6,571 nt of DNA from a virus (taxonomy: Duplodnaviria; Heunggongvirae; Uroviricota; Caudoviricetes): IMG/VR virus record IMGVR_UViG_2563366935_000003; one strand, 5' to 3'. Below, in pieces: positions 96 through 6,571 of this stretch. Below the pieces are notes generated by a model that was given only the letters and a program-made list of their open reading frames with translations, had not been told where the DNA came from and did not search any database. Each line of letters opens with the position of its first letter. Positions within the stretch are counted from its first letter, which is position 1. A program made the translations under genes and the position numbers.

Positions 96-350
96 TCTAA
101 AATTGCTATACTATTCATGTTGGTTTTTCTCCACGGATTTACCGACAACCGAAGCCCTGACTGTTCCAGCAGTTGGGGCTTCACTGTTTTGATTTCTTTG
201 CCGCATCAAGCATCACTTCTGAAAACGTGCGCTTGCCACTGAATACTCTTTCTCTTCTCAATTTTTCGTTCGTGCCAAATGATTCGCCATGAACAAAATT
301 TGGTCTTAAAATGGTAATCGCAATCTCTTTGACTACTGCATCCAAGCGAA

Positions 351-503
351 TCACACCGTTACCCCCTCTCTCTTCAGGCTGTCTATCAGGCGCTTGATAA
401 CCTCTGAGTTAAACGACCTGCACTCTTCCTTTGCCCTGCTACCGATAGCATCCTTTAACGACTGCGGCATCCTTACCAAAATCTTACTTATTTCTTTCTC
501 CAT
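351..503 (-). CDS. Arc-like ribbon-helix-helix transcriptional repressor (50 aa)
   Basis: Translation MEKEISKILVRMPQSLKDAIGSRAKEECRSFNSEVIKRLIDSLKREGVTV follows the Arc/MetJ RHH pattern (basic beta-strand RMP..L, then ..GRS.NSE.. helix), recalled resemblance to P22 Arc. ATG at 503 is preceded by a strong SD (GGAGGG, about 5-nt spacing); the longer track ORF to 539 begins at a TTG with no RBS. Confidence 0.7.
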   Translation of the reverse strand: MEKEISKILVRMPQSLKDAIGSRAKEECRSFNSEVIKRLIDSLKREGVTV

Positions 504-539
504 GTTACCCTCCACGCAAACAACTCTTTTCGAATACAA

Positions 540-568
540 AAGATAGCAAAGTGAGTATATCTAGTCAA
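540..568 (-). promoter_or_regulatory. Candidate sigma70 promoter for the Arc-like gene: -35 TTGACT (568-563), 17-nt spacer, -10 TATCTT (545-540)
   Basis: Read from the minus strand; hexamers close to consensus with canonical spacing, about 35 nt upstream of the start codon at 503; the -10 overlaps the left arm of the inverted repeat. Confidence 0.35.
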
Positions 569-593
569 AATTTTTTTGCATACACTTTGCTAT
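543..593. promoter_or_regulatory. Perfect 11-bp inverted repeat ATAGCAAAGTG (543-553) / CACTTTGCTAT (583-593), candidate operator in the divergent intergenic region
   Basis: Exact reverse complements separated by 29 bp, centred between two divergent RHH repressor genes; RHH repressors of this type bind palindromic operators. Confidence 0.45.
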
Positions 594-617
594 CAAATTG
601 AATACCAAAGGTGTTAT

Positions 618-866
618 ATGGCAAAGGGTGTGTCAATTTCTCCAACTACGGTAAGAATCCCTGAATCTTTACGCGAGGCTCTTGCTGTCAGAGCATCAAA
701 AAATGGTCGCTCTGTTAACTCCGAGATCGTCATGATTTTGCAAGCCGCGATTGATGAAGATAGGTCGCCAAAGTCAGTTGAGTCATTTGCTCAGCAAGAA
801 GCTGATAAATTCAAAGAGGCGCTACTTGAGACGCTAAAGACCATGTATGCTAAGGATGAAAAATAA
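618..866 (+). CDS. Mnt-like ribbon-helix-helix repressor (82 aa) with C-terminal helical extension
   Basis: MAKGVSISPTTVRIPESLREALAVRASKNGRSVNSEIVMILQAAI... carries the RHH core (NGRSVNSE) and a C-terminal helical tail (FKEALLETLKTMYAKDEK) like the Mnt tetramerisation helix; length matches Mnt (about 83 aa). ATG at 618; the upstream track extension starts at TTG. Stop overlaps the next start (TAATG). Confidence 0.7.
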   Translation: MAKGVSISPTTVRIPESLREALAVRASKNGRSVNSEIVMILQAAIDEDRSPKSVESFAQQEADKFKEALLETLKTMYAKDEK

Positions 867-1402
867 TGCTGCACACAATTCATTTCTTATGCCCTGTTAA
901 CACTGCCACTGTTGGGCAACTTCAGAACCACTGTCTCACCGCATTATCTCAAGGCGCAACTGAATTAAATATCCATATATCAAGTCAGGGAGGGGAAACT
1001 GCTGCTGGCTTTACTGCGTATAACTTTCTTAAGTCACTCCCTGTTACCGTTAGAACTCACAACATAAGCAATGTTGAATCCATAGCTAATATCGTTTTCC
1101 TGGCTGGCTCAGAACGTTTCGCAAACCCATTATCAAGATTCCTGTTACATCCTCTATTATGGTGCTTTGCCTCCCCAGCCGCCGACCATGCCAGATTGAG
1201 AGAGTACGGGAAATGCCTCGATAACGATCTTGATCGCTTCGTTGAGACGTTCAATATCGACATCGGAACCCATATTAGGTGGGCATCCCTGATAGCAGAC
1301 TCGACCATTTTGGATGCTAACAAGGCTCTTGAGCATGGCATAATTAATTCCATAAAAACTGCAAGGCTGGCATCCAATCAGGCAAACTGGTGGGTTGTTT
1401 GA
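866..1402 (+). CDS. ClpP-family (peptidase S14-like) serine protease paralog, 178 aa
   Basis: Collinear with ClpP core motifs: ISSQGG vs INSPGG, a Ser 29 residues after the GG (VESIA vs GQAASMG), His in RFLLHPL vs RVMIHQP, Asp in ADSTI vs ERDRF, and C-terminal EHGIINSI vs EYGLVDSI. Translationally coupled to the Mnt-like gene. Confidence 0.65.
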   Translation: MLHTIHFLCPVNTATVGQLQNHCLTALSQGATELNIHISSQGGETAAGFTAYNFLKSLPVTVRTHNISNVESIANIVFLAGSERFANPLSRFLLHPLLWCFASPAADHARLREYGKCLDNDLDRFVETFNIDIGTHIRWASLIADSTILDANKALEHGIINSIKTARLASNQANWWVV

Positions 1403-1427
1403 TGGGTAAATCATGATTACTCCTTAT

Positions 1428-1453
1428 AAAAAACCCACCTGACGGTGGGTTTA
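1428..1453. terminator. Bidirectional rho-independent terminator between convergent genes
   Basis: Perfect 9-bp stem AAACCCACC (1431-1439) / GGTGGGTTT (1444-1452) with loop TGAC, A-run upstream and T-run downstream; lies between the 3' ends of the ClpP-like gene (+) and the YafO-like gene (-). Confidence 0.6.
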
Positions 1454-1900
1454 GTCAAACATAGTGTTTCTAAAGTCTCTCGCATACCCTGCTAACACTC
1501 TCATTCTATTATGATTGTTAGCAGACATGTGAGCTACAGGATGAAAAAGAGCAATCAATGAATACCTGTTCTCATCAAAAAGATTTTGTGCATAAACGAG
1601 AGCGGTATTGGATGTTTTATGCCACTGCAACTTTTGCGGTGTGCTGATATCTGTGCCATTTTTTATTGGCTCAAATTTATTTTCACCAATTGCTAAATGA
1701 AGGTGCATAAGGCCTGCATCTTCAATATCAGGAGGTCGATGATAAGAGGTGTCTCTGCCAAAATAGCTGGGCAACGTTCCCGTAGACTTGTAGATGATAA
1801 AATCATCTACAAGTGTTTGTTTTAAATCAGGAAACTCAACAAAAACCGGGGAGAAAAAATAGTCAAAACTATCCTGATTATATTCCACGGTTACTTGCAT
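1451..1900 (-). CDS. YafO-family toxin-like protein (putative ribosome-dependent mRNA interferase), 149 aa
   Basis: Motifs DFIIYKSTGTLPSYFGRD, HLHLA, ALVYAQNLFDE, SLIALFHP and the C-terminal ANNHNRM...FR align collinearly with my recollection of E. coli YafO. ATG at 1900 with SD GAGGT; 8 nt downstream of the preceding gene's stop. Confidence 0.55.
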   Translation of the reverse strand: MQVTVEYNQDSFDYFFSPVFVEFPDLKQTLVDDFIIYKSTGTLPSYFGRDTSYHRPPDIEDAGLMHLHLAIGENKFEPIKNGTDISTPQKLQWHKTSNTALVYAQNLFDENRYSLIALFHPVAHMSANNHNRMRVLAGYARDFRNTMFD

Positions 1901-1908
1901 GTTTTACC

Positions 1909-2475
1909 TCAGTGGAAGTTACCAGAGTGAAACACACGAGTCCCGTGCTCAGCAAGCGCACGCAAACCAGCCATATCTACGGAACTATCAAAAACAACCG
2001 GAACACATGAGCGTTGTTTAATAAGACTATTCAGGTTGGTTACGGCAGATCTGGCATCAGCAACAACGATATAGATATCTCTTGCGATCTCTTTAAAATC
2101 AGCAGAAGCTTCTTTGAATACCGATTTCATTGCCCCTTCAAGTCCTCTCAATTGATGCTCTATCAATCGAGACTTTTCTGGTTCAATGATAGACAACACA
2201 TTGTCTACATTCTCATCGGTAGCGTTTGCAAGAACACGATAAGCGTATTTCAGCATTCGAGACAATTCTTTAATCGAAGACACCGCCTCATGAAGCTCAT
2301 CATTAGCCCGTTCACTGCTGAATGAGGATTGATGGTAAGCGTGCTGAACGTTATCAGTAACAACCACCTCACAACTGAACGCAGAAGCTTGCTGTAATAG
2401 CAAACCTATTGCGACTCCAGCTTTGGCAGCGTTCAAGCTAAACATTTCATCAATCCCATTAGTCTCATTGCTCAT
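1909..2475 (-). CDS. Hypothetical protein (188 aa), first gene of the operon with the YafO-like toxin; candidate non-canonical antitoxin or partner
   Basis: ATG at 2475 preceded by a near-perfect SD (AAGAAGGAGG); the track ORF start at 2505 is a TTG without RBS. No recognisable domain; sequence composition suggests a mostly helical soluble protein. Confidence 0.6.
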   Translation of the reverse strand: MSNETNGIDEMFSLNAAKAGVAIGLLLQQASAFSCEVVVTDNVQHAYHQSSFSSERANDELHEAVSSIKELSRMLKYAYRVLANATDENVDNVLSIIEPEKSRLIEHQLRGLEGAMKSVFKEASADFKEIARDIYIVVADARSAVTNLNSLIKQRSCVPVVFDSSVDMAGLRALAEHGTRVFHSGNFH

Positions 2476-2650
2476 ACAAACCTCCTTCTTATCGGAGATT
2501 ATCAATAGCTATGCATCCATTGAATACACGCTATGCGCAATAAGTTTACGTCACGTGATATCATTATGCAACCACCGTTCTATCACCGACTAACTTTACT
2601 CCCACTCCTATACATCATCTGGTATCCTGCGCAAAACTAAGGAGGTTGGT

Positions 2651-3001
2651 GTGAATGCTCAGTCTGTCATCATGGTTTTCCTTGGGCTGATTGTCGCAAA
2701 ACTATATCCAGACTGGTGGAAAGGGGCATTAGCTACTGTCGCCATCTATTTGCTTTTATCCATCGTTAAGCGATCACTCGCTGAGACCGTAAATCAAGCA
2801 AAACGTTTCTCATTTAAGAGTTTAATAAACTATGTTACTGGGCTTATTTTTTGCCTTTCAATTCTGATCGCTTCGGCTTTTTTGCCCGTATCAATAGCTA
2901 ATTTTTTTGGCGCACCATATGAGGTAGGTTATCTATTCTCTGTTTCCTGTCTTGCCATTGCTCTTCTTTACCTGTGGACGAGATCAAAGAATAAAAATTA
3001 G
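2651..3001 (+). CDS. Small polytopic inner-membrane protein (116 aa, about 4 predicted TM helices), function unknown
   Basis: GTG start 5 nt after a strong SD (TAAGGAGG, 2638-2645); four hydrophobic stretches (SVIMVFLGLIVAKL, ALATVAIYLLLSIV, LINYVTGLIFCLSILIASAFL, GYLFSVSCLAIALLYLW) and a basic C-terminus. Confidence 0.6.
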   Translation: MNAQSVIMVFLGLIVAKLYPDWWKGALATVAIYLLLSIVKRSLAETVNQAKRFSFKSLINYVTGLIFCLSILIASAFLPVSIANFFGAPYEVGYLFSVSCLAIALLYLWTRSKNKN

Positions 3002-3125
3002 CCATCCGTGGCTGCCAGTTATTGAGCTTCTTTTTGTGATGCCTGTGCGACTCTGGTGAGCGATTGTGTGACCGTACTGATCGCTCTGTCATATGCTGTG
3101 CTACCTTTTGGCGTATTTGCCAGAC

Positions 3126-3150
3126 TGAACCGCCCCGGGAATCCTGGAGA
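3126..3150. repeat. IS629 left terminal inverted repeat
   Basis: TGAACCGCCCCGGGAATCCTGGAGA is an imperfect inverted match to the right end at 4411-4435. Confidence 0.8.
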
Positions 3151-3179
3151 CTAAACTTCCTGAGAAAGAGGTAAACAGG

Positions 3180-3506
3180 ATGACTAAAAATACTCGTTTT
3201 TCCCCCGAAGTCCGTCAACGGGCAGTCCGTATGGTTCTGGAAAGTCAGAGCGAATATGACTCACAATGGGCGACAATTTGTTCCATTGCTCCAAAGATTG
3301 GCTGTACGCCGGAGACTCTGCGTGTCTGGGTTCGCCAGCATGAGCGGGATACCGGGGGCGGTGATGGAGGGCTCACCACCGCTGAACGTCAGCGTCTGAA
3401 AGAGCTGGAACGTGAAAAGCGTGAACTGCGCCGCAGTAACGATATCCTTCGCCAGGCTTCCGCTTATTTTGCGAAGGCGGAGTTCGACCGCCTCTGGAAA
3501 AAATGA
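3180..3506 (+). CDS. IS629 OrfA (108 aa; helix-turn-helix / leucine-zipper transposase subunit)
   Basis: [65 protein letters not shown]... is recognised as IS629/IS1203 OrfA; SD AGAGG upstream of the ATG. Confidence 0.9.
3497..3503 (+). other. Candidate programmed -1 ribosomal frameshift site (A-run GAAAAAA) at the OrfA/OrfB overlap
   Basis: OrfB lies in the -1 frame relative to OrfA and overlaps it by 4 nt; six consecutive A (3498-3503) sit in the last two OrfA codons. IS3-family elements make an OrfAB fusion transposase by -1 slippage on A-rich heptamers. Confidence 0.4.
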
Positions 3507-4393
3507 TGCCACTGCTGGATAAGCTGCGTGAGCAGTACGGGGTCGGACCGCTATGCAGCGAACTGCATATTGCCCCGTCAACGTATTACCACTGTCAGCA
3601 ACAGCGACATCATCCGGATAAACGCAGTGCCCGTGCGCAGCGCGATGACTGGCTGAAGAAAGAGATACAGCGCGTATACGATGAAAATCACAAGGTATAC
3701 GGTGTGCGTAAAGTCTGGCGTCAGTTGTTACGGGAAGGTATCAGAGTGGCCAGATGCACTGTGGCACGTCTCATGGCGGTTATGGGACTTGCCGGTGTTC
3801 TCCGGGGTAAAAAGGTCCGTACGACCATCAGCCGGAAAGCCGTTGCCGCAGGCGACCGCGTAAACCGTCAGTTCGTGGCAGAACGACCTGACCAGCTGTG
3901 GGTGGCTGATTTTACTTACGTCAGCACATGGCGGGGCTTCGTCTATGTGGCGTTCATCATTGATGTGTTTGCCGGATACATCGTGGGGTGGCGGGTCTCA
4001 TCGTCCATGGAAACGACATTCGTGCTGGATGCACTGGAGCAGGCGTTATGGGCCCGTCGACCGTCCGGCACGGTCCATCACAGTGATAAAGGTTCTCAGT
4101 ATGTATCGCTGGCCTACACACAGCGGCTTAAGGAAGCCGGATTACTGGCATCAACAGGAAGTACAGGCGACTCGTATGACAACGCGATGGCGGAGAGCAT
4201 CAATGGTCTTTACAAAGCGGAGGTAATACACCGTAAGAGCTGGAAAAACCGTGCAGAAGTGGAACTGGCCACACTCACGTGGGTGGACTGGTATAACAAT
4301 CGACGATTGCTGGAAAGGCTGGGCCATACTCCTCCGGCAGAAGCAGAAAAAGCTTATTATGCTTCCATCGGAAACGATGATCTGGCAGCCTGA
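3503..4393 (+). CDS. IS629 OrfB (296 aa; DDE/RNase H-fold transposase catalytic domain)
   Basis: [30 protein letters not shown]... recognised as IS629 OrfB; IS3-family catalytic-core signatures are visible ([24 protein letters not shown]). Confidence 0.9.
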
Positions 4394-4410
4394 GTTCACA
4401 GATAAAACAC

Positions 4411-4435
4411 TCTCCAGGAAACCCGGGGCGGTTCA
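4411..4435. repeat. IS629 right terminal inverted repeat
   Basis: Reverse complement TGAACCGCCCCGGGTTTCCTGGAGA matches the left end. Confidence 0.8.
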
Positions 4436-5593
4436 CATGATGATTGAGTCTGCGTCCTGTTCAATGCTTCCTGAATCACGCAAATCTGCGTTTGTCGGGC
4501 GTTTGTTTGGTCGCTTCTCAACATCGCGTGAAAGCTGACTCAGGGAAATAACCGGTGTTTTCAGGTCTTTCGCCATCGCCTTCAGGCTTCCGGAGATGTG
4601 AGCAATTGCGAGGTCGTTGCGGTCTGCTTTCGGCTTCTCAATCAGGCCAAGATAATCCGCCATGATGAGTGAGAGGTTTGGATTTTCCTGTTTGTGCCGT
4701 TCTGCGATTGAGCGTATTTCTTCGACCGATAATCGCGAGGCATCGACTACCCATACATCCAAATCTGCAAGCTGACTCATGCCGTTAGCAACACGTGCCC
4801 AGCCCTCGTCATCCATCGATGCAGGATTTCGCAGTACGCTAACCGACATCCTCCCGGCGTTGGCAATGCTTCGCTCTGCAATCTGCAATGCGCTCATTTC
4901 CATTGAGAAAATCAATACCCCGCGCCGGACGTCAGAACCAGGAATAACGCGGCTTGCAACGCCTTCGGCAATCTTCAGCGCCAGTTCGGTTTTCCCCATA
5001 CCAGGACGAGCAGCGATTATCACCAGGTCTTCCGCGTTCATCCCTCCGGTGATGGCATCAAGTTCTTCGATTCCGGTCTTCAGGGTATCGGACTCTTCTC
5101 CGTTCCTCAGACGCCTGTCAAGCGTGTCAGTGTAGTCGGTGATGATTTCCCCTAACCGTACAGGTTTAACCTCGTCACGGGGCTTTCTGATGGCTGAGAG
5201 ACGTTTTACAAGTTCATCCATCGCCTGACTCGATGCGTCGATGGTTCCGCTTTGGATTGGTTCACGCATTTCATCCATGATTTCCAGCACCAGACGGCGG
5301 TGATAGTTATCCGCGACCATTCCGGCATATCCCTTCAGGTTTGCGGCGCTCGGGCAGTTTTTGCTGGTCATCAGGATTGACGTGAAATGCTCCTCTCCGC
5401 ACGCCTCGGCAACCATCAGCGCGTCGATTAGGTTTCTGTTTCTCGCCTGCTTCCGGATAACCTCGAAGGCTTTCCGGTAGAGCGGAATTGAAAACGCTTC
5501 CGGCTCCAGCGTTGCAAGAACGTCACTGGCGGTTGGAGTTAATCCACCAATCAGCAGGCCACCGATAACGCTCGCTTCGATATCCTGTCTCAT
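4433..5593 (-). pseudogene. Phage DnaB-like replicative helicase, 3'-truncated by IS629 (about 55-60 C-terminal residues missing)
   Basis: 386-aa translation with DnaB N-terminal domain, Walker A ([10 protein letters not shown]), Walker B (LIMADYLGL) and the motif [32 protein letters not shown]. Reading frame stops only 3 codons after EQDAD, using the TGA formed by the IS629 terminus (4433-4435), where E. coli DnaB has about 55 more residues. Confidence 0.85.
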
Positions 5594-5947
5594 GCAATCC
5601 CCCTGTCTGCAAACTTCCCTTCCCGAACTCCCGTTAACGAGTCTTCTCTCAGCAGGTAATCAAAATCAGCCGTCCAGCCCGTGTCGTTGTCTCCGAAGTA
5701 AAACGGCTTGGCCTGATGCACAAACGCCCTGACATACGCTCTGAAACCGTCCACGTTTGGCGTTTTCAGTTGCGGGATGATTTTCTTCAGGCGGCGTTTT
5801 CGTTTCTCGTTGACCGCAACAGCGTGTGGCAGTCTGTCACCGACTTCGGTGTTGTAGGCGTTCAGGAAGGATTCGTAGTCGATTCGTTCTGCCTTGCGAC
5901 GTTCAGGTTTAACCTGCCCATCGCCTCCCCCATTGGGGGGTAGGGGG

Positions 5948-5975
5948 GTATTATTTATATTCTTGTTAATACCTT
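5948..5975. other. AT-rich stretch adjacent to the iterons (candidate DNA-unwinding element), next to a G/C-rich near-palindrome CCCCCATTGGGGGG (5926-5939)
   Basis: attatttatattcttgttaatacc is strongly AT-rich relative to its surroundings and lies immediately downstream of the iterons in the gene's direction, mirroring ori-lambda organisation. Confidence 0.4.
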
Positions 5976-5980
5976 CTTGT

Positions 5981-6110
5981 TCATGATGTGCGGTTGTTTG
6001 TGCGGCTTCATGTGCGCTTTCATGTGCGGCATGTACGCTGAAAGCCGCGCTATTGCTGGCTTCATCATGTGCGGCATCATGTGCGGTTGTTTGTGCGGCT
6101 TCATGTGCGG
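5981..6110. repeat. Iteron array (candidate phage replication origin): about 8 copies of a 12-bp unit, consensus yTTCATGTGCGG, in two clusters; includes an exact 31-bp duplication (5986-6016 and 6079-6109)
   Basis: Directly visible tandem periodicity: tgtgcggttgtt / tgtgcggcttca / tgtgcgctttca / tgtgcggcatgt ... catgtgcggcatca / tgtgcggttgtt / tgtgcggcttca / tgtgcggg. Lies inside the initiator gene, as ori-lambda lies inside O. Confidence 0.6.
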
Positions 6111-6354
6111 GTAAATTGTCCATTTTTTGAGCATATTCATGGTAATTTGTGATGGTTATCACACGGCCTTTTTGCTTCTCTCCATCAATGGAGATCATCC
6201 CCTCTTTCACAAAAACCTGAAGCATCCGCTCAACCTGATCACGGCTTGCTGGCTTGCCATGTCTGTCGCATAACTGAAGACCTAAATCAGCTGCTGTCAC
6301 AACCAGTTGACCGGGTTGCAGATGCCATTCATGACCTTTGAAATTCGCTTTGTA

Positions 6355-6571
6355 TGAACCGCCCCGGGTTTCCTGGAGAGTGTTTTATCTGTGAACTCAG
6401 GCTGCCAGATCATCGTTTCCGATGGAAGCATAATAAGCTTTTTCTGCTTCTGCCGGAGGAGTATGGCCCAGCCTTTCCAGCAATCGTCGATTGTTATACC
6501 AGTCCACCCACGTGAGTGTGGCCAGTTCCACTTCTGCACGGTTTTTCCAGCTCTTACGGTGTATTACCTCC
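6355..6571 (-). mobile_element. IS629 3'-terminal fragment in inverted orientation, truncated by the window edge
   Basis: 6355-6571 is the exact reverse complement of 4219-4435 of the complete copy; the terminal IR begins at 6355 (TGAACCGCCCCGGGTTTCC...). Confidence 0.9.
6397..6571 (-). CDS. IS629 transposase OrfB, C-terminal fragment (minus strand, partial at window end)
   Basis: Reverse complement is identical to the 3' end of OrfB; stop codon is at 6397-6399 on the minus strand. Confidence 0.85.
   Translation of the reverse strand, partial: EVIHRKSWKNRAEVELATLTWVDWYNNRRLLERLGHTPPAEAEKAYYASIGNDDLAA

Follow-up and report, generated by a model that had tools for sequence, protein, structure and literature searches.

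The stretch of DNA analysed here, in the following called the window, comprises the 6,571 nt of the virus record IMGVR_UViG_2563366935_000003 (Caudoviricetes, IMG/VR). Between positions 351 and 866 it harbors two short genes for ribbon-helix-helix repressors, homologues of arc (351-503, minus strand) and mnt (618-866, plus strand) of phage P22, which diverge from a spacer of 114 bp (504-617). The region is almost certainly a homologue of the immI region or “ant moron”, carried by a P22-like prophage of Escherichia coli. The assignment to immI is regarded as genuine because protein homology, gene order and the presence of the sar RNA all agree. An earlier note, made from the letters of the DNA alone, had already described a P22 immI-like pair of Arc-like and Mnt-like genes diverging from a 114-bp region, and this description is borne out by the alignments to P22 Arc and Mnt, by the P22 gene order and by sar.

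The arc homologue encodes 50 amino acids and starts with an ATG at position 503, preceded by the Shine-Dalgarno sequence GGAGGG. The protein matches the Pfam family Arc (expectation value (E) 5e-12) and is 39% identical to P22 Arc (E 9e-10), and its best matches in the PDB are Arc constructs. The mnt homologue encodes 82 amino acids including a C-terminal tail (Pfam Arc, E 9.5e-11). It is 36% identical to P22 Mnt over 74 of its 82 residues (E 7e-14), in an alignment that spans from the beta-strand to residue 81 of P22 Mnt, within two residues of the C-terminus, so that the tail aligns to the tetramerisation region at the sequence level. Among PDB entries, the Mnt repressor 1MNT matches it best. 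In RefSeq both open reading frames (ORF) are found at identical coordinates, annotated as “Arc family DNA-binding protein”. The beta-strands differ from those of P22. Gln9, Asn11 and Arg13 of P22 Arc are aligned with Lys, Leu and Arg, and the Mnt strand reads SPTTVR instead of PHFNFR. The named Arc residues and the Mnt strand are positions which we take to be base-contacting in the Arc and Mnt structures. Because the strand residues of both proteins differ from P22, a different DNA specificity is expected.

The arc homologue is the first gene of an operon of arc, orf57, sar (in antisense direction) and ant that is read from a Pant-like promoter at 568-540. The 57-amino-acid orf57 (181-354, minus strand; phrog_17642, E 1e-43) lies between arc and sar/ant and is coupled to arc through a GTGA start/stop overlap. 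Among the fetched loci it occurs almost exclusively after the Arc type of the window, and it is absent from P22 and from a relative in Serratia. The gene of the antisense RNA sar (119-185, plus strand) is a full-length match to Rfam family RF00262 with 83.9 bits against a gathering score of 43 (E 3.9e-17), and a terminator scan placed its terminator hairpin at 151-182. Of ant itself, which measures 903 nt in intact relatives such as APEC O1, a remnant is left at 96-118 on the minus strand, as established by alignment to the 5' ends of ant in APEC O1 and P22. It consists of the start codon at 118-116 and seven codons (MNSIAIL). The gene is truncated by one end of an IS3-family insertion sequence (IS) at 1-95. 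The earlier note had called the antirepressor gene missing, which is correct for the full gene, although a truncated one with seven codons is kept. Since these first seven codons persist and are followed from position 95 by the IS3-family end, the loss of ant is secondary, the gene having been destroyed by the element and not absent by design. By analogy with the annotation of Psar in epsilon34, the sar promoter would span about 84-112, and its -35 part was probably lost to the IS. An apparently absent gene in a short window can therefore be mere IS damage. On the other side, mnt heads an operon with a ClpP-like gene (866-1402, plus strand), which is expressed from the prophage and ends at the old mnt terminator.

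Over positions 100-3100 the window matches, at 100% identity, P22-like prophages of numerous E. coli chromosomes, among them APEC O1, S88 and ATCC 11775. Some part of this segment occurs in 741 of the 5,426 complete E. coli genomes, with K1 extraintestinal pathogenic (ExPEC) and avian pathogenic (APEC) lineages among the carriers. The prophage integrates at argW in E. coli. In APEC O1 the first half of the gene order reads tRNA-Arg, intS, acetyltransferase, tailspike, ant, the 57-amino-acid ORF and arc. The divergent half continues with mnt, the ClpP-like gene, a YafO-family toxin gene with a 198-amino-acid partner, a small membrane protein and the ejection-protein genes. The annotations of the intact relatives APEC O1 and E10 place the locus between homologues of gene 16 (ejection protein) and gene 9 (tailspike), and P22 and epsilon34 share with them the order gene 16, cargo, mnt, arc, ant, gene 9. 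Both of these late-operon neighbours are severed by IS copies in the window.

The immI type was first drawn as “APEC-1”. In the passages drawn on here, the ant moron of the APEC O1 prophage (“APEC-1”) is one of ten types between the gene 16 and gene 9 homologues (PMC2629481; Villafane, Casjens et al. 2008), and that of APEC-1/UTI-1 is the same locus as in the window. These passages of PMC2629481 give gene content, and no operators, promoters, repeat or ClpP-like gene were found in them. According to the same parts of this epsilon34 paper (PMC2629481), the ant morons of CUS-3 and HS-1 are apparently without arc. Short divergent Arc homologues like the 50-amino-acid protein could have escaped notice in CUS-3 and HS-1 in 2008. 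A literature search found no paper on immI operator diversity beyond P22.

The Pant-like promoter (540-568, minus strand) consists of a -35 box TTGACT at 568-563, a 17-nt spacer and a TG-extended -10 box TATCTT at 545-540, with 9 of 12 matches in a consensus scan. A near-consensus promoter on this strand, with its -10 region overlapping the left arm of an inverted repeat, had been predicted and was found in just this form. Aligned without gaps to P22 Pant/arcO (3289-3317 of our locus L003), the segment is identical at 21 of 29 positions and, within the 17-nt spacer, at 11 of 17 (P 0.001). The annotation of epsilon34 places arcO and Pmnt/Pant at the corresponding coordinates of this 29-bp segment. 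Judged by position and by sequence, 540-568 is the homologue of P22 Pant/arcO.

The inverted repeat is perfect over 12 bp, with the left arm GATAGCAAAGTG at 542-553, the right arm CACTTTGCTATC at 583-594 and 29 nt between them. It had been described before as an exact repeat of 11 bp; each arm turned out to be one base longer. The repeat is beyond chance: when the 114-bp spacer was shuffled 20,000 times with dinucleotides preserved, only 0.09% of the shuffles contained a perfect repeat of 12 bp or more, and 0.2% one of 11 bp or more. A search for the 12-mer with 3 mismatches gave additional weak arm copies, which were not significant at the scale of the whole window. The perfect repeat is a property of this allele, shared by only three of the 22 distinct sequence contexts in which this immI type was seen in viral contigs. 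Fifteen contexts carry GATAGC in the left and GATATC in the right arm, three carry GATATC in the left and GATAGC in the right arm, and one has another change in the left arm. The polymorphism of the arms is a G/T toggle at the same half-site position, occurring in either arm, and compensating pairs were seen in none of the 22 contexts.

The repeat is not one palindromic operator, since the two arms, 40 bp from each other, belong to separate operator-like sites. The left arm forms the -10-proximal half of O_L (542-562), a 21-bp site with the ATAK-N10-CTAT geometry of P22 arcO. The right arm lies within O_R (583-600) in front of mnt, a site bordered on one side by the A/T tract that precedes the Pant -35 box and on the other by the ribosome-binding site of mnt. 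In most alleles O_R reads CACTTTGATATCAAATTG, an 18-bp near-palindrome (16/18). Of the P22-like operator logic suggested in the earlier note, an operator inside the Pant spacer is supported by sequence, and the repeat as a single palindromic operator is not. The arms are at the same time two of the five copies of a 9-bp unit, ATA[GC][CA]AAAG, located at 534, 543, 585-593 (minus strand), 602 and 618. A direct repeat, GAATAC(A/C)AAAG, is formed by units at 532-542 and 600-610 on the plus strand. Its first copy, GAATACAAAAG, covers about +1 to +10 of Pant, and the second, GAATACCAAAG, is situated just upstream of the mnt Shine-Dalgarno sequence and overlaps it. In P22, the Mnt operator sits at Pant +1. 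Repeat-array operators are used by other ribbon-helix-helix repressors as well, as in the MetJ metboxes, the omega heptads, CopG and ParG. The window with its five 9-bp units resembles these arrays in that short related units, direct and inverted, extend across a promoter, but only the fold is shared, unit length and spacing differ, and the array of the window is a putative operator.

A scan of species-representative genomes yielded 18 loci, one of which, from Serratia marcescens, was informative. In this relative the DNA-facing beta-strand residues of both proteins are the same as in the window. The core of the spacer (532-612, 81 bp) is 92.6% identical between the two, compared with 74.5% for mnt, 64.9% for arc and 53.6% for the arc-proximal spacer; the left arm is conserved at 12 of 12 positions and the right arm at 11 of 12. 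In five immI types with different recognition strands, the Pant -35 box and the ATG of mnt are always separated by exactly 49 nt, in contrast to 22 nt in P22. The PhiR12-like type has a nearly common strand (PLGIRIP) in Arc and Mnt, and its spacer contains four CTACAC units. In the type of our loci L203-L209, Arc has hardly changed (SRILVRMP) and Mnt differs (APYSVRMP). ATCAC units take the place of GAATAC at Pant +1 and close to the ribosome-binding site of mnt, and the sole change in the arms is from CAAAGTG to CAC(T/A)GTG. The L232 type combines another Arc with a Mnt strand resembling that of L203 and with the right flank of O_R seen in that type. L203-L209, L232 and L249 represent natural immI variants of fixed architecture that differ in recognition strands and repeat units (ATCAC, GAATAC, CTACAC).

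In P22, Pant and Pmnt overlap and a single arcO serves both promoters. In the window type, where mnt is 27 nt farther from the Pant -35 box, each side would have its own operator copy, and both arms would be copies of the half-site of a ribbon-helix-helix repressor in two separate operators. O_L would fill the spacer and the -10 box of Pant, where arcO lies in P22, and O_R, 40 bp off, would cover an mnt promoter in front of mnt. The Arc homologue would bind both arms and shut both promoters late in infection, and the Mnt homologue would bind the GAATAC(A/C)AAAG units at 532-542 and 600-610 and so silence ant in the lysogen. A function of the arms as repressor sites is quite probable, in view of the conserved core in Serratia, the arm variants without compensating pairs and the constant 49-nt distance. 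The assignment of the proteins, with Arc on the arms and Mnt on the GAATAC units, is the simplest reading by P22 logic and is put forward tentatively, its chances falling a little short of even. As a whole, an immI switch in which the arms are repressor half-sites in two operators, with Arc and Mnt assigned in this way, is the best explanation of the locus and in our judgement a fairly probable one.

Several observations weigh against this explanation. The five copies of the 9-bp unit between 534 and 626, where 0.3-0.5 would be expected, correspond to a P of about 4e-4, which is optimistic, the motif having been defined after the arms had been seen and the analysis being restricted to 520-635. 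O_R does not have the arcO geometry. A P22-style Mnt palindrome at Pant +1 was not found, and there is no palindrome between 504 and 539. On the mnt side, the consensus scan of the spacer revealed no sigma-70-like promoter, and the best manual candidate, TGnTATCAA at 588-596, lacks the final T of the -10 box and a -35 box. The Leu which replaces the base-contacting Asn11 of P22 Arc makes the analogy to the P22 contacts loose. Finally, the covariation between proteins and sites is thin (three related types) and mixed, with positions in O_L following either the Arc type or the Mnt type.

Other explanations of the repeat and of the two proteins were considered. The repeat could act as a nucleic-acid hairpin, either as a leader RNA stem-loop with a role in attenuation, processing or stability or as a DNA cruciform, and the 12-bp stem of the perfect allele indeed folds well on the plus strand (-17.3 kcal/mol, z-score -4.2). 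This stem, however, carries a mismatch in 19 of the 22 distinct alleles. Since the natural variants of the arms disrupt the stem and are never compensatory, degenerate protein half-sites are favoured, and the hairpin was rejected in spite of the folding result. Moreover, a transcript from the Pant-like promoter would start near 533 and thus lack the stem, a U-run after the stem is absent, and in Serratia the arms are conserved no better than the sequence that separates them. Taken together, we regard a hairpin as very improbable. Still more improbable is the idea that the small ribbon-helix-helix proteins are antitoxins or plasmid-type CopG/ParD regulators, for instance with the 82-amino-acid protein and the ClpP-like protein as a toxin-antitoxin-like pair. 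It could draw on weak sub-threshold or secondary Pfam matches (FitA-like, VapB, HicB) and on the translational coupling of the ClpP-like gene to the 82-amino-acid gene, but both proteins match Arc and Mnt best, sar is there along with the gene order of P22, some alleles with the same Mnt have no ClpP-like gene and end in the terminator, and more distant ClpP-like homologues are not located beside ribbon-helix-helix genes. Membership in unrelated CopG/ParD-type families, named in the earlier note as the finding that would speak against immI, is not supported by homology. With arc followed by orf57, sar and ant, and mnt by a ClpP paralogue that many alleles lack, a type II antitoxin is largely refuted.

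A closer competitor concerns the protein that occupies the arms. A tetramer of the Mnt homologue might bind them with one dimer each, bridging 40 bp and wrapping the Pant -35 box and the A/T tract so as to repress ant in the lysogen. This is consistent with the conservation of the C-terminal tail with P22 Mnt and with an A/T tract between the arms that could bend the DNA. The step from the window type to L203-L209 also points in this direction, as Arc remains nearly constant, the Mnt N-terminus differs and both arms change, and the right half of O_R changes along with the Mnt type. Yet with 40 bp, or 3.8 helical turns, a loop would be short and its ends out of phase, and the left arm sits at the position of arcO. 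The covariation is also inconsistent, since L232 combines an L203-like Mnt beta-strand with the right arm CAAATTG. Bridging by Mnt is therefore considered unlikely, and Arc on the arms remains the preferred assignment. A further-reaching scenario assumes that the overlapping promoters of P22 were pulled apart and their shared operator duplicated, so that one repressor would act through identical arms 40 bp apart, possibly by bridging, and that in addition the ClpP paralogue of the mnt operon would mix with host ClpP and alter proteolysis in the lysogen, for example of the antirepressor or of proteins of superinfecting phages. As a joint claim this is more doubtful again.

In comparison with P22 immI, the window shares the homologous divergent arc and mnt genes, an ant operon that starts with arc, a sar RNA antisense to the start of ant, the location between gene 16 and the tailspike gene and an operator in the Pant spacer with the ATAK-N10-CTAT geometry. 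It differs in its proteins, which are 36-39% identical and have changed beta-strand residues, and in its spacer of 114 bp versus 90 bp in P22. Overlapping divergent Pant and Pmnt promoters as in P22 are not seen, mnt lying 27 nt farther from the Pant -35 box. A second operator-like site is present before mnt, and the GGTCCAC-type Mnt palindrome of P22 at Pant +1 is absent. The window furthermore has an extra 57-amino-acid gene after arc, its ant is IS-destroyed, and behind mnt the ClpP-like gene replaces orf59/sieA of P22. The known system explains the locus well, and the locus is a new repressor/operator specificity allele of the P22 immI family. The layout is modified relative to P22 by the separated promoters, the second operator-like site and the extra genes. 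The novelty is modest and lies in the operator architecture and the linked ClpP paralogue.

The gene behind mnt encodes an N-terminally short ClpP paralogue of 178 amino acids (Pfam CLP_protease, E 2e-11; PDB 9UXT, E 1.6e-35), in agreement with the ClpP-like protease described earlier as cargo on the mnt side. Its ATG overlaps the mnt stop codon (TAATG), and the gene is therefore taken to be co-transcribed with mnt. The protein aligns over its full length to its closest solved relative, PpClpP1 of Pseudomonas plecoglossicida (9UXT). The catalytic Ser and His, both essential in PpClpP1, are conserved in the ClpP-like protein as Ser72 and His95, and the third position of the triad is non-canonical, with Ser (and an adjacent Asp) in the ClpP-like protein versus Pro in PpClpP1. 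PpClpP1 is N-terminally short and of low activity. It forms wide-pore tetradecamers, joins canonical ClpP in mixed assemblies and shows no binding to ClpX (PMC12900304). The short N-terminus and the catalytic Ser/His are thus common to both proteins, whereas the gene in the window is prophage-borne and joined to the mnt operon.

Just after the ClpP-like gene, at 1425-1450, lies the hairpin AAAAAACCCACCTGACGGTGGGTTT, identified as the ancestral mnt terminator by alignment with P22 and with alleles lacking the ClpP-like gene. In these alleles and in P22 the mnt stop codon lies inside the same hairpin. Because the hairpin is now found beyond the ClpP-like gene, this gene appears to have been inserted into the transcription unit of mnt. 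Of 47 close homologues of the ClpP-like gene (at least 94% identity), 46 stand directly behind a Mnt homologue, and these Mnt homologues belong to six different N-terminal, that is DNA-binding-strand, types. The linkage occurs in P22-like phages and in a lambda-like siphophage, and its tightness supports a selected role. In the Escherichia phage PhiR12_1 (L006, lambda-like), a complete cassette of ant, arc, mnt and the ClpP-like gene is located at 2606-4618 between the tail genes K and L. Homologues with 52-75% identity do not lie beside Mnt genes in the eight loci inspected. At several of these loci the ClpP-like gene is found beside ORFs that resemble lysis genes, as read from the ORFs without a search. 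A literature search returned no paper on a ClpP-like gene in the immI context. A PADLOC scan of seven neighbouring proteins including the ClpP-like one gave no match to defence systems except a sub-threshold ZorA match for the 198-amino-acid protein.

That protein (1909-2505, minus strand) has no family match beyond a PHROG of unknown function and precedes the homologue of YafO-family toxins at 1451-1900 on the same strand. The two may constitute an unusual toxin-antitoxin pair that travels as moron cargo; the YafO-family toxin has its own upstream partner, on the other strand than mnt. Adjoining gene 16, at the position of sieA in P22, a small predicted membrane protein of 116 amino acids is encoded at 2651-3001 (plus strand). 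It was considered as a SieA protein and dismissed, having no sequence similarity to P22 SieA.

The IS end at 1-95 is identical to the ends at about 4341-4435 and, in inverted orientation, about 6300-6350. A full IS3-family copy at about 3100-4435 comprises the transposase ORFs and an apical loop-internal loop (ALIL) frameshift pseudoknot at 3461-3577. The prophage has been scrambled by one element, of which the window contains three ends or copies (1-95, about 3100-4435 and about 6300-6571). Through these copies a truncated replicative helicase gene (4433-5593) and a replication gene (5590-6300) were brought beside the immI region. In other genomes the same prophage is interrupted by the same IS at different places.

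P22 Arc and Mnt, known from the work of Susskind, Youderian, Sauer and co-workers, are textbook models of DNA recognition by ribbon-helix-helix proteins, although, to our knowledge, studies have covered a single natural protein-operator pair for each. The window locus and its sister types are natural variants in which DNA-facing residues are changed together with matching changes in the operators, and might be used as a data set from which to derive a recognition code. In addition, the mnt operon of this immI type carries a ClpP paralogue that would be expressed in lysogens.

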